64,000 nt of DNA from Escherichia phage teqskov. The notes beneath the pieces are model-generated. The model was not told the DNA's origin. It saw only the letters and a list, made by a program, of their open reading frames with translations, and ran no database searches. Of the stretch, positions 55,514-60,174 are shown one piece after another (the first letter of the stretch is position 1; the number at the start of each line of letters is the position of its first letter). A program made the translations under genes and the position numbers. The DNA is taken from the sequence record NC_054934.1; one strand, given 5' to 3'.

Positions 55514-55517
55514 GTTA

Positions 55518-55547
55518 AGGACTCCTTCGGGAGTCCTTTTTTATTTT
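55518..55547 (+). terminator. rho-independent terminator
   Basis: AGGACTCCTTCGGGAGTCCT followed by TTTTTTATTTT; same hairpin as at 2660. Confidence 0.85.
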
Positions 55548-56437: not shown

Positions 56438-56456
56438 GAGGGGCTTCGGCCCCTTA
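56438..56456 (+). terminator. hairpin terminator (UUCG loop), weak T-tract
   Basis: AGGGGCTTCGGCCCCT. Confidence 0.5.
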
Positions 56457-56758: not shown

Positions 56759-56955
56759 TGAAATTCTTTTTAGGTCAAACCGTTGAATTAAAGGGAGTTG
56801 GTATACCTGGATTAATTTCTAAGGTTCTACCTCCATTTAAATGGAGTGGTATTCAAATAAAAGAGGCTTATATTGTTTCCTGGGTAGATGGAAATGAAGA
56901 CCTTCGTATGGGTGATGAATTATCTCCTATCTACGGATTAAAGGAATTAGTATGA
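56758..56955 (+). CDS. hypothetical protein (65 aa)
   Basis: TAATG overlap. Confidence 0.45.
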   Translation: MKFFLGQTVELKGVGIPGLISKVLPPFKWSGIQIKEAYIVSWVDGNEDLRMGDELSPIYGLKELV

Positions 56956-57158
56956 ATATAATTAATAAGATTTTTGGAATTCAGTACATTAAGGTCACAT
57001 ATAAAGTAACAGATAAAAATCCGTATACTGATGAACACGAAGAACCACAAGTTAAGTCTATTATATTAGAAAAGGACCCTAACTGGCCAGTTGAATTTCG
57101 TCTTCCTTGCTATGGTCATTGGGCTGATGTTGAAATTATAAGCATTGAAAATGTCTGA
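56952..57158 (+). CDS. hypothetical protein (68 aa)
   Basis: ATGA overlap. Confidence 0.45.
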   Translation: MNIINKIFGIQYIKVTYKVTDKNPYTDEHEEPQVKSIILEKDPNWPVEFRLPCYGHWADVEIISIENV

Positions 57159-57609
57159 GTTAGAGATTAGAAGTAATTTTAGGTGGCCATCATGTGCATT
57201 AAGTAATTTCGCCCAATGGCCTTTCGTTATGGATGGTATTCAATTTGGAGGTCTTGAAGGATTCCTCCAAGGGTGTAAGGTGAAAAATGTTGAACAACAA
57301 CGTCGTATATTTGGGTTATCCGGGCTTGCCGCCCAACAAGCTGGAAGGTCTTATGCTAGAGCTCAGGACCGTGGGACCCTCTTCTGGCTTGGAGTTCCGT
57401 TTTCAAGATACTCCCCGGCGTGGAAAGAATTATACACAAATGCATATTTTGAAGCAGCGATCCAAAACAAGGGCTTTCGTGATGCATTACAAGCCTCGAA
57501 AGGAAAAGTTTTGAAGCACAGCATGGCTAGTGGTCTAACAAAAGATGATACAATATTAACCGAAGCTGAATTTATTGATGTGTTAAACCTATTAAGAGAC
57601 TCTCTATGA
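57151..57609 (+). CDS. NADAR / YbiA-like (DUF1768) domain protein
   Basis: LSNFAQWPFVMDGIQFGGLEGFLQGCK matches the YbiA/NADAR signature (SNFxxWP...DG...E...Q..K); ATG at 57151. Confidence 0.6.
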   Translation: MSELEIRSNFRWPSCALSNFAQWPFVMDGIQFGGLEGFLQGCKVKNVEQQRRIFGLSGLAAQQAGRSYARAQDRGTLFWLGVPFSRYSPAWKELYTNAYFEAAIQNKGFRDALQASKGKVLKHSMASGLTKDDTILTEAEFIDVLNLLRDSL

Positions 57610-58445
57610 AGCCTACTATTTTAACTGATATTGATGGAGTTTGTTTAAGCTGGCAATCAGGTCTTCCTTATTTTGCTCAGAAATATAATCTTCCGTTAGA
57701 ACATATTTTAAAAATGATCCAAGATGAGAAATTTATTTCTCCAGGTAAACTCTTTAATTGTGATGAAGAACTTGGTGTCAAGTTAATTGAAAAATATAAT
57801 CGATCAGATTTTATTCGTTACTTGTCTCCATATAAAGATGCCCTGTGTGTAATTAACAAACTAAAAGAAGATTATAATTTTGTAGCTGTTACAGCATTGG
57901 GTGATTCTATTGACGCTCTGTTGAATCGTCAATTTAATTTGAATGCTCTTTTTCCTGGCGCCTTCTCGGAAGTAATGATGTGTGGTCATGATTCTTCAAA
58001 AGAAGAGTTGTTCAAAAAGGCAAAAGAGAAATATAACGTAATTTGTTATATTGACGATCTCGCGCATCATTGCGATCATGCGAGTGAAATATTAAATGTT
58101 CCTGTTTATTGGATGGCTCGAGGAGAGCGTGACAATATTCCAAAAACTGCGCAGCGAGTTTATACATGGAATGATGTAGAAAATAAACTTTTTTCACCGA
58201 AGGAAAATAAAGAAAGTTTTGATAGTGAAAAAGCTATAAAAGATGTAATTGAAAAGATGATTAAAAATGATTCTTTTCGTTGGAACACTACCTGGAGAAC
58301 TCCTGGGTTTAATCCTTATAATCATCTATATCATCCATATCAGACACATCCGTTTCAGACATGGAACTATATTAAACCTGGTGGCATAGAGTATTTGTAT
58401 AATAGACCTACTTGTGGTGATAATATTTTCCAAGGAGCATTCTAA
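57606..58445 (+). CDS. HAD-superfamily phosphatase-like protein (279 aa)
   Basis: N-terminal DIDGV (HAD motif I DxDG[TV]) and downstream Asp pairs; ATGA overlap with NADAR gene. Confidence 0.55.
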   Translation: MKPTILTDIDGVCLSWQSGLPYFAQKYNLPLEHILKMIQDEKFISPGKLFNCDEELGVKLIEKYNRSDFIRYLSPYKDALCVINKLKEDYNFVAVTALGDSIDALLNRQFNLNALFPGAFSEVMMCGHDSSKEELFKKAKEKYNVICYIDDLAHHCDHASEILNVPVYWMARGERDNIPKTAQRVYTWNDVENKLFSPKENKESFDSEKAIKDVIEKMIKNDSFRWNTTWRTPGFNPYNHLYHPYQTHPFQTWNYIKPGGIEYLYNRPTCGDNIFQGAF

Positions 58446-58714
58446 TGTTTGTCGTTCACACTATTTATGAAAATGAAGGTAATACTACGCGTGATTACGG
58501 TCACGTAAATCAATTCTTTAGATGCAATCCAGAATTCCGAGCTCAAAAAGACGAACGAATTTTTAAAAAATGTGTAGAGCAAGGTTTCATTTATATCAAG
58601 CACTGGATGCAAGGAAATAAAGTTAGAACTACATATCATAGGTCTTTAACTGAGCTTAATGATGAATTGATTTATAATAGAGCTGTAAATCAAACTCTGA
58701 AGGATGAACAATGA
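58445..58714 (+). CDS. hypothetical protein (89 aa)
   Basis: TAATG overlap; precedes ligase with ATGA overlap. Confidence 0.5.
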   Translation: MFVVHTIYENEGNTTRDYGHVNQFFRCNPEFRAQKDERIFKKCVEQGFIYIKHWMQGNKVRTTYHRSLTELNDELIYNRAVNQTLKDEQ

Positions 58715-60174
58715 TTCTTAAAATTCTGAATGAAATAGCATCTATTGGATCAACTAAGCAGAAGCAAGCAATTCTTGAAAAGAATAAAGATAATGAATTG
58801 CTTAAACGAGTATATCGTCTGACTTATTCTCGTGGGTTACAGTATTATATCAAGAAATGGCCTAAACCTGGTATTGCTACCCAGAGTTTTGGAATGCTGA
58901 CCATTACCGATATGCTTGATTTCATTGAATTCACGTTAGCTACTCGGAAATTGACTGGAAATGCTGCAATTGAGGAATTAACTGGATATATCACTGATGG
59001 TAAAAAGGATGATGTTGAAGTTTTGCGTCGAGTGATGATGCGAGACCTTGAATGCGGTGCTTCAGTATCTATTGCAAACAAAGTTTGGCCAGGTTTAATT
59101 CCTGAACAACCTCAAATGCTGGCAAGTTCTTATGATGAAAAGGGCATTAGTAAGAATATCAAGTTTCCAGCCTTTGCGCAGTTAAAAGCAGATGGAGCCC
59201 GGTGTTTTGCTGAAGTCCGAGGCGATGAATTAGATGATGTTCGTCTTTTATCACGAGCTGGTAATGAATATCTAGGATTAGATCTTCTTAAGGAAGAGTT
59301 AATCAAAATGACTGCTGAAGCCCGCCAGATTCATCCAGAAGGTGTGTTAATTGATGGCGAATTGGTATACCATGAGCAAGTTAAAAAGGAACCAGAAGGC
59401 CTAGATTTTCTTTTTGATGCTTATCCTGAAATTAGTAAAGCTAAAGAATTCGCCGAAGTAGCGGAATCTCGTACTACTTCTAATGGAATCGCCAATAAAT
59501 CCTTAAAAGGAACCATTTCTGAAAAAGAAGCTCAATGCATGAAGTTTCAGGTTTGGGATTATGTCCCGTTGGTAGAAATATACGGTCTTCCGGCGTTTCG
59601 TTTAAAATATGATGTACGTTTTTCTAAACTAGAACAAATGACATCAGGATATGATAAAGTAATTTTAATTGAAAACCAGGTAGTAAATAACCTAGATGAA
59701 GCTAAGGTAATTTATAAAAAGTATATTGACCAAGGTCTTGAAGGTATTATTCTCAAAAATATCGATGGATTATGGGAAAATGCTCGTTCAAAAAATCTCT
59801 ATAAATTTAAAGAAGTAATTGATGTTGATTTAAAAATTGTAGGAATTTATCCTCACCGTAAAGACCCTACTAAAGCAGGTGGATTTATTCTTGAATCAGA
59901 GTGTGGAAAAATTAAAGTAAATGCTGGTTCAGGCTTAAAAGATAAAGCCGGTGTAAAATCGCATGAACTTGACCGTACTCGCATTATGGAAAACCAAAAT
60001 TATTATATTGGAAAAATTCTAGAGTGCGAATGCAACGGTTGGTTAAAATCTGATGGCCGCACTGATTACGTTAAATTATTTCTTCCAATTGCGATTCGTT
60101 TACGCGAAGATAAAACTAAAGCTAACACATTTGAAGATGTATTCGGCGATTTTCATGAGGTAACTGGTCTATGA
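58711..60174 (+). CDS. 30: ATP-dependent DNA ligase gp30
   Basis: 487 aa (T4 DNA ligase length); adenylation motif region KADGAR; sequence recognised. Confidence 0.95.
   Translation: MILKILNEIASIGSTKQKQAILEKNKDNELLKRVYRLTYSRGLQYYIKKWPKPGIATQSFGMLTITDMLDFIEFTLATRKLTGNAAIEELTGYITDGKKDDVEVLRRVMMRDLECGASVSIANKVWPGLIPEQPQMLASSYDEKGISKNIKFPAFAQLKADGARCFAEVRGDELDDVRLLSRAGNEYLGLDLLKEELIKMTAEARQIHPEGVLIDGELVYHEQVKKEPEGLDFLFDAYPEISKAKEFAEVAESRTTSNGIANKSLKGTISEKEAQCMKFQVWDYVPLVEIYGLPAFRLKYDVRFSKLEQMTSGYDKVILIENQVVNNLDEAKVIYKKYIDQGLEGIILKNIDGLWENARSKNLYKFKEVIDVDLKIVGIYPHRKDPTKAGGFILESECGKIKVNAGSGLKDKAGVKSHELDRTRIMENQNYYIGKILECECNGWLKSDGRTDYVKLFLPIAIRLREDKTKANTFEDVFGDFHEVTGL

Follow-up and report, generated by a model that had tools for sequence, protein, structure and literature searches.

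Bacteriophage T4 encodes an anti-DarT factor of the NADAR type, AdfN (gp30.3), described by Johannesman et al. (Nat Commun 2025; PMC11825919). T4 without adfN becomes sensitive to DarTG1, the purified T4 protein alone strips ADP-ribose off DarT1-modified DNA in vitro, and the substitutions E36A and K43A weaken the rescue by T4 AdfN (PMC11825919). AdfN has been called an orphan antitoxin and is unable to substitute for DarG1 in cells without infection; according to its authors full activity needs an additional T-even factor (PMC11825919). The YbiA-like clade, by comparison, comprises housekeeping N-glycosidases for riboflavin intermediates and not DNA de-ADP-ribosylases (PMC11825919). Independent, published transposon sequencing of T4 on DarTG1 hosts showed the loss of insertions in 30.3 (log2FC -7.25, padj 0), with 30.4 as the second significant hit (log2FC -1.79, padj 0.014). 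In phage T5, the HAD-type dNMP phosphatase Dmp depletes dAMP and thereby blocks Kongming immunity.

In this work we analysed a window of 64,000 nucleotides from Escherichia phage teqskov (NC_054934.1), which carries the counterparts of T4 genes 30.3 and 30.2 next to each other. A sequence-only reading of this DNA had proposed that the NADAR gene and its HAD-like neighbour form an anti-defence unit, for example against DarTG, or a modulator of the phage's own ADP-ribosylation. That a phage NADAR protein reverses DarT-type DNA ADP-ribosylation is a correct and biologically important claim, and the anti-DarTG role of this gene was already published in 2024-2025. As the published work concerned this same gene, the window contributes just one more adfN allele. 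Two results go slightly beyond the literature that we found. First, gp30.2, mostly annotated as 'hypothetical', can be placed as a probable, divergent NT5C-like HAD phosphatase, stably linked in genomes to DNA ligase rather than to AdfN. Second, published transposon data speak against gp30.2 as the T-even factor needed by AdfN.

The adfN gene and its overlapping neighbours

The adfN gene (T4 gene 30.3) occupies positions 57151-57609 of the + strand and codes for 152 aa from an ATG start; an alternative TTG start at 57145 on the same strand would yield 154 aa. Over its full length the protein is identical to T4 gp30.3 at 151 of 152 residues. The single difference from T4T, M125 here for I125, is a conservative substitution, and the place of the gene between 30.4 and 30.2 equals that in T4. 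The NADAR signature comprises S18, N19, F20, A21, Q22, W23 and P24, followed by D28, G29, E36, Q40 and K43. Among 52 AdfN homologues the catalytic E36 (codon 57256-57258, +) is invariant and K43 (57277-57279, +) is at least 90% conserved. A histidine specific to the family, H123 (57517-57519, +), is likewise invariant across it. The predicted structure has the alpha+beta fold of NADAR proteins; a structure prediction and the presence of the catalytic glutamate had been named earlier as points to check. The model shows an intact C-terminal helix (residues 138-151), which is missing from the RB69 allele, cut short at 137 aa.

In Pfam, the protein matched PF08010 (Phage_30_3) with E=2.2e-70. No direct match to the NADAR family PF08719 was obtained for the window protein at E<=1; 21 of the 52 family members matched it, the best at 1.5e-07. 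A phmmer search of the PDB with AdfN returned noise only. By its 99% identity to the T4 protein, for which the anti-DarTG role that the sequence-only reading had assigned to a NADAR protein is experimentally established (PMC11825919), 57151-57609 is adfN, and its predicted product is a NADAR-fold DNA ADP-ribosylglycohydrolase.

The gene lies in a tightly packed string. Upstream lies gene 30.4 (68 aa, 56952-57158, +), whose stop end shares 8 nt with the start of adfN. Within adfN, the ORF listing contains 30.3' (75 aa, 57287-57514, +) in another frame, which the T4T annotation gives as an out-of-frame internal translation inside gene 30.3. Downstream, gene 30.2 (279 aa, 57606-58445, +) begins with an ATG (57606-57608) placed over the TGA of adfN (57607-57609), giving an ATGA overlap at 57606-57609 (+) that is read from the sequence. 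Gene 30.1 (89 aa, 58445-58714, +; DUF3045, PF11243, E=1.2e-64) is followed by gene 30, the ATP-dependent DNA ligase gene (487 aa, 58711-60174, +). The two open reading frames, their overlap, the NADAR signature and the DIDGV motif are therefore all as first described, and so is the location upstream of the ligase gene, with 30.1 intervening. The expression 'fused by overlap' was an overstatement, as all seven successive junctions between 56471 and 60359 (30.6/30.5, 30.5/30.4, 30.4/30.3, 30.3/30.2, 30.2/30.1, 30.1/30 and 30/alt.1) overlap by 1-8 nt. Since start/stop overlaps connect all eight genes of this interval, the ATGA overlap is not particular to 30.3/30.2. A scan for sigma-70 promoters did not delimit transcription units, with 31 sites found against 31.1 in shuffled sequence.

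The HAD-like protein gp30.2

The DIDGV motif corresponds to residues 8-12 of gp30.2. All four HAD motifs are present on the + strand, with the general acid/base at D+2 by which phosphatases are recognised: D8 and D10 in motif I (57627-57635), T96 in motif II (57891-57893), K132 in motif III (57999-58001), and D150 and D151 in motif IV (58053-58058). None of D8, D10, K132, D150 and D151 varies among 43 homologues, in which T96 is at least 90% conserved; R108 and N111 are invariant within the close phage family. AlphaFold confidently predicts a HAD fold with a Rossmann-like core and a cap, which together with the conserved motifs upholds the earlier assignment of this protein to the HAD phosphatases. 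Catalytic core and helical C1 cap take up residues 1-200 (57606-58205, +), followed by a variable, mostly low-confidence C-terminal tail from about residue 200 to 279 (58206-58442, +).

Searched directly against Pfam, NCBIfam and the PDB, the gp30.2 sequence gave no match, and the protein was placed solely through profiles, family-wide scans and structure prediction. Of the profile searches proposed earlier for both proteins, the one with AdfN gave a match (PF08010) and the one with gp30.2 itself did not. Weak matches were found to PF00702 for 13 of the 43 family members (best 3.4e-4) and to NT5C (PF06941) for 7 of the 43 (best 1.2e-4), the window protein not being among the latter. The best PDB match of the family profile was cdN (2jao, E=0.0096). 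Two relatives, P0310 and P0346, match the gp30.2 profile with E about 1e-21 and 1e-20 and pass the NT5C threshold in full-length alignments (40.2 and 36.8 bits vs 24.8); the link of gp30.2 to NT5C is transitive only. In the alignment with cdN, W16, F43 and Y64 of gp30.2 fall opposite Phe, Phe and Tyr, and these positions are aromatic throughout the family, in distant relatives as well. We take the aligned cdN residues to be the nucleobase clamp; a literature search on the cdN base-clamp residues found no confirmation.

From fold, motifs and family-wide conservation, gp30.2 is most likely an uncharacterised, nucleotidase-like phosphatase of the HAD superfamily and a divergent relative of NT5C. 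Its substrate, judged by the same fold and motifs and by the conserved aromatic cap positions, is most likely small and nucleoside-monophosphate-like. About 1,400 sequenced T4-like phages carry the gene; a literature search for gp30.2 or gene 30.2 found no papers. A scan of 185,579 species genomes of bacteria and archaea returned a single locus, on a 178-kb contig and with 48% identity; it is probably phage DNA, its size and identity being like those of T4-like phage matches. No recognisable partner domain was found in fusion proteins with a gp30.2-like domain (P0254, P0315, P0206 and P0245), and the contigs bearing P0310 held only unannotated genes.

Genomic partners and possible roles of gp30.2

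The sequence-only reading had taken the two genes for an ADP-ribose or anti-defence operon. Besides their co-orientation and the ATGA overlap, which is generic to the string, some conservation speaks for such a pairing: of 77 related gp30.2 loci, 19 have AdfN immediately upstream and 38 have it somewhere within 6 kb, distant Acinetobacter- and Aeromonas-type phages among them. Nearly all Straboviridae have both genes, and the counts by genus run parallel (1438 and 1509 phage records), so that a non-essential functional link is conceivable, but co-occurrence at the genome level is confounded by shared ancestry. Against the pairing, the two genes are about 50-57 kb apart in 25 large contigs, and only about 20 of 80 loci of the AdfN family have gp30.2 within 6 kb, with roughly 60 of the 80, including jumbo-phage contigs, lacking it. 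In the clade where AdfN has moved, its neighbours have no homologues in the window.

The published transposon data on T4 point the same way. On DarTG1, insertions in 30.2 were neutral (log2FC -0.12, p=0.61, 71 TA sites), whereas those in 30.3 were lost; they were also neutral in M9 medium (-0.10), and on K-12 they were recovered at 72 of 72 TA sites. Gene 30.2 is thus an accessory gene, dispensable in the laboratory and not required for counter-defence by AdfN, and the proposed operon is not supported. The same data argue that gp30.2 is not the T-even factor needed by AdfN, which narrows that question slightly, though redundancy could mask a contribution of gp30.2 in such a screen. We also considered gp30.4 as a conserved partner of AdfN and rejected it. 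Its family is confined to Tequatrovirus/Mosigvirus-like loci and sometimes lies near the ligase gene without AdfN, so that its depletion is more likely due to polarity on adfN or to translational coupling with it.

We consider it likely that adfN and the gene of the nucleotidase-like gp30.2 are independent neighbours, adjacent by chance in a packed T4-like string, that is, two early genes side by side in the overlapping series rIII-30.9...30.1-30-alt.1. AdfN would act as an orphan DarG1-like NADAR enzyme cleaving the N-glycosidic bond that joins ADP-ribose to guanine, the mark set by the host toxin DarT1 on single-stranded phage DNA, and its removal would allow phage replication to proceed in hosts carrying DarTG1. 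The second protein, gp30.2, would belong to the HAD superfamily as a Mg2+-dependent aspartyl-phosphate phosphomonoesterase with a helical C1 cap. It would be divergently related to the 5'(3')-deoxyribonucleotidases (NT5C) and would dephosphorylate a small nucleoside-monophosphate-like substrate.

A tentative extension, which we regard as unlikely, is that gp30.2 might serve the T4-like phages at large as a nucleotidase for counter-defence or pool editing, removing a specific nucleotide that the host makes or senses, such as an immune signal, its precursor or a toxic analogue. If true, this would explain the lack of a phenotype in K-12 for a gene that almost the whole family carries. In its narrower form, in which the nucleotide serves host immunity as signal, precursor or poison, the proposal is a specific version of the independent-neighbour reading and appears doubtful. 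The nucleotidase-like fold and motifs are consistent with it, as are the essentially phage-restricted distribution of the family, the position of 30.2 in the early region beside adfN and alt, and the precedent of a phage HAD dNMPase as anti-defence factor, T5 Dmp. Dispensability on K-12 in LB, in M9 and under the few defences tested is also what a conditional anti-defence gene would display. However, Dmp was rejected as a homologue (hhalign probability 1.4%, nothing shared past motif I), no target system can be named, and 30.2 is not given as a hit for any of the defence systems or clinical isolates covered in the text of the T4/Bas37 screens. Moreover, T4 recycles host dNMPs, and a broad dNMPase would therefore be costly. 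A weaker variant is that gp30.2 may clear ADP-ribose-derived products of the AdfN, AdfM, Alt and Mod reactions, and that redundancy hides its phenotype.

The genomic context raises the alternative that gp30.2 works with ligase and the replication/repair machinery, for instance as a 3'-phosphatase cleaning nicks before they are sealed, like the HAD domains of polynucleotide kinases. Of 75 related loci, 73 have the ligase gene no more than 2 kb away from gp30.2; it is downstream in 70 of the 75 and, with rearranged gene order, about 700 nt upstream in 3 more. Distant homologues are found among EndoVII, PhoH, ligase, UvsY and UvsW, or beside a PD-(D/E)XK nuclease and gp59, and gp30.2 has a weak match to the polynucleotide kinase family phrog_415 (E=0.002). 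Gene order near gene 30 is, however, kept family-wide, so that the linkage may be merely inherited, and gp30.2, unlike the essential ligase, is fully dispensable. In sequence and profile comparisons its best ties are to NT5C, not to Pnk, and gp30.2 has a large C1 cap (residues about 14-88). Such a cap is typical of small-molecule HAD enzymes, and DNA-end phosphatases such as T4 Pnk have none. We consider this role improbable.

Least probable of all, and largely refuted for DarTG1 resistance by the transposon and neighbourhood data above and by the activity of AdfN on its own in vitro (PMC11825919), is a two-gene module in which AdfN frees ADP-ribose and gp30.2 acts on it or on its products (for example AMP or ribose-5-phosphate after Nudix cleavage), or in which gp30.2 is the reported T-even factor, for which it can be said that RB69, where plasmid-borne AdfN fully works, has an intact 30.2.

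Comparison with known systems

The DarG1-type NADAR antitoxin of DarT1-NADAR systems (Geobacter lovleyi, PDB 8bat) and the Phytophthora NADAR (8bau) differ from AdfN in that the latter has no partner toxin gene, and no DarT-like Pfam match was found in 30.4, 30.2 or the other flanking ORFs. AdfN also lacks the N-terminal extension, and has a histidine (H123) in place of an otherwise conserved glutamate. To E. coli YbiA (PDB 2b3w) the likeness is at the profile level only (AdfN family profile, E=0.0073).

The closest profile and fold matches of gp30.2 are the cytosolic and mitochondrial 5'(3')-deoxyribonucleotidases, cdN and mdN (NT5C, PF06941; PDB 2jao, 2i7d and 4mum), and the Staphylococcus epidermidis homologue 3bwv. 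With these it has in common the HAD core, the helical C1 cap, the four motifs and the three aligned aromatic cap positions; identity to them is only 16-22%, the window protein falls under every Pfam threshold, and its mostly disordered tail of 80 residues is an addition. Like gp30.2, T5 Dmp is phage-encoded and has a DxDG motif I, whose aspartate is required for Dmp activity, but it is a functional analogue only and its gene lies in the pre-early region, unlike that of gp30.2. Finally, the 3'-phosphatase domain of T4 PseT (polynucleotide kinase) is capless and acts on nucleic-acid ends, whereas gp30.2 has a large cap, which favours a small substrate.

AdfN and the gene string around it

Gene 30.3 (57151-57609, + strand) encodes a 152-aa NADAR protein, of which 151 residues are identical to T4 gp30.3, renamed AdfN by Johannesman et al. 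(Nat Commun 2025, PMC11825919). In that work T4 without adfN was sensitive to DarTG1, rescue by AdfN was impaired by E36A and by K43A, and purified AdfN stripped ADP-ribose from DarT1-modified DNA, an activity cited there as shown earlier in vitro. The authors explained the DarTG1 sensitivity of phage RB69 by its truncated adfN allele, and in the RB69 record 30.3 is indeed cut short, at 137 aa. Independently, 30.3 insertions vanished on a DarTG1 host in T4 transposon sequencing (HIDEN-SEQ, bioRxiv 10.1101/2025.11.20.689424). The sequence-only reading, which had guessed an anti-DarTG role for the NADAR gene, was therefore right, on a function that is already published.

AdfN-family NADARs (PF08010) are also common in metagenomic viral contigs of 250-500 kb that resemble jumbo phages (loci L016-L080 and L186-L247), and relatives are present in GenBank phages of Caulobacter, Brevundimonas, Rhizobium, Desulfovibrio and Ralstonia; the published cluster was found primarily in the T4 superfamily (PMC11825919). 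A His in place of the conserved Glu was invariant in both of our alignments of the family.

The window belongs to a Tequatrovirus. Region 56900-58750 shows 97-98% nucleotide identity to many T4-like coliphages at 100% query coverage, and the gene order follows the T4T annotation (rIII, 30.9, 30.8, 30.7, 30.6, 30.5, 30.4, 30.3, 30.2, 30.1, 30, alt.1, alt). Gene 30.4 (56952-57158, 68 aa) precedes adfN, which is followed by gene 30.2 (57606-58445, 279 aa), gene 30.1 (58445-58714, 89 aa) and the DNA ligase gene 30 (58711-60174, 487 aa), all on the + strand. Within adfN, a 75-aa ATG open reading frame in another frame (57287-57514, +) corresponds to T4's 30.3', annotated as 'internal translation in a different reading frame within gene 30.3', and is also struck by mutations or insertions in adfN. 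Gene 30.9 is followed by a strong terminator-like hairpin and its T-run (55517-55538, +), and a GC-rich palindrome, AGGGGCTTCGGCCCCT, lies between 30.7 and 30.6 (56439-56454); the two together suggest that the overlap-packed string from 30.6 to alt.1 is transcribed or processed as a unit of its own.

Evidence on a proposed NADAR-HAD module

The sequence features first described are all present: the ATGA overlap between genes 30.3 and 30.2, SNFAQWP...DG...E...Q..K and DIDGV. From them the two genes had been proposed to form one module, an interpretation against which the overlap pattern, synteny and functional data all speak. Overlaps are generic here: between 56471 and 60359 all seven junctions of eight genes overlap by 1-8 nt, and a scan of this interval found no terminator-like site on the + strand.

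Synteny was examined in 80 viral loci around gp30.2 homologues, 75 of them with enough downstream and 77 with enough upstream sequence. DNA ligase lay within 2 kb downstream of gp30.2 in 70 of 75 loci, and about 700 nt upstream in three more of inverted gene order (L156-L158, where both genes sit among EndoVII, PhoH, UvsY and UvsW), giving 73/75. AdfN was found within 6 kb upstream in 38 of 77 loci and directly adjoined gp30.2 in only 19; in 25 large contigs carrying both genes, contig coordinates place them about 50-57 kb apart. Conversely, some 60 of 80 AdfN-family loci, including jumbo-phage contigs of 250-420 kb, had no gp30.2 within 6 kb. Linkage of gp30.2 to DNA ligase is thus much more consistent than its linkage to AdfN (loci L081-L160). 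Each of the two genes is near-universal among T4-like phages and their genus counts run in parallel (1,438 and 1,509 GenBank phage records), as expected from shared ancestry.

The HIDEN-SEQ supplementary tables give log2FC per T4 gene for control vs DarTG1 and for LB vs M9. On DarTG1 the only significant genes were 30.3 (-7.25, padj 0) and 30.4 (-1.79, padj 0.014), with LB vs M9 values of 0.12 (p=0.77) and -0.05 (p=0.90). Gene 30.2 (71 TA sites) was neutral in both comparisons (-0.12, p=0.61, padj 1; -0.10, p=0.61), and its insertions were recovered on K-12 at 72/72 TA sites (bioRxiv 10.1101/2025.11.20.689424). Therefore gp30.2 is not required for AdfN counter-defence in T4. The AdfN authors postulated an additional T-even factor (PMC11825919); gp30.2 is unlikely to be that factor unless redundancy masks its contribution.

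At the junction of 30.4 and adfN, stop and start overlap by 8 nt. This 30.4 effect could be polar, or reflect translational coupling or a contribution of 30.4 to AdfN function; we favour polarity, since the 30.4 family is confined to Tequatrovirus/Mosigvirus-like loci and at times lies near ligase without AdfN.

Family and fold of gp30.2

A direct search with gp30.2 found no match in Pfam, NCBIfam or PDB sequences. The protein is a member of phrog_420, a family with no functional annotation, and in an alignment of homologues, all from T4-like phages, D8, D10, K132, D150 and D151 are invariant and T96 nearly so. These residues account for all four motifs of the HAD superfamily; among them is the second Asp, a hallmark of phosphotransferases as opposed to dehalogenases. 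The AlphaFold model (pLDDT >90 for residues 1-190, poor beyond about 225) shows a HAD core in which a helical insertion after motif I forms a C1-type cap. The HAD phosphatase assignment of the earlier reading is thereby borne out, and gp30.2 is a member of a known enzyme superfamily.

Profile searches, the check proposed with that assignment, gave matches at the family level. The best PDB match of the family profile was the cytosolic 5'(3')-deoxyribonucleotidase cdN (2jao, E=0.0096), and the Pfam family NT5C was matched weakly by 7 of 43 members. An exhaustive search yielded 1,484 representative relatives; the two tested against NT5C, P0310 and P0346 (about 1e-21 and 1e-20 against the gp30.2 profile), both scored above its gathering score over the full model. 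Three cap residues of gp30.2, W16, F43 and Y64, correspond in the alignment to a Phe, a Phe and a Tyr that we take to be the base-stacking residues of cdN and its mitochondrial counterpart mdN; the three positions are aromatic in distant relatives too. We assign gp30.2 to the HAD phosphatases as a divergent, NT5C-like member, whose substrate is probably a nucleoside-monophosphate-like small molecule.

The C-terminal tail (residues ~200-279; 58206-58442, +), rich in aromatic residues and Pro, is predicted by AlphaFold to be disordered except for a helix at 207-220, and is missing from many homologues of about 200 aa. Near its end a short motif common to several enterobacterial lineages, G-I-E-Y-L/W-x-N-x-P-T, could mediate docking to a partner protein. 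In four metagenomic relatives, P0254 (591 aa), P0315 (660 aa), P0206 (430 aa) and P0245 (365 aa), a gp30.2-like HAD domain is fused to 150-500 extra residues that matched no Pfam family; if characterised, such fusions might hint at a partner or substrate.

Apparent phage restriction and possible role of gp30.2

A search of 185,579 species genomes of bacteria and archaea found a single relative, on a 178,077 bp contig of a Flagellimonas marina assembly (L164, NZ_JBHSCL010000010.1). Its 48% identity is at the level of Klebsiella-type T4-like phages and the 178-kb size is also like that of a T4-like phage genome; the contig is probably phage DNA, and the family looks phage-restricted. The dispensability of gp30.2 in the laboratory would be compatible with a conditional role in anti-defence or pool editing, whatever the target. 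Phage T5 offers a precedent in Dmp, a dNMP phosphatase that depletes dAMP and so blocks Kongming immunity. Dmp and gp30.2 have motif I alone in common, so that the precedent is one of analogy, not homology.
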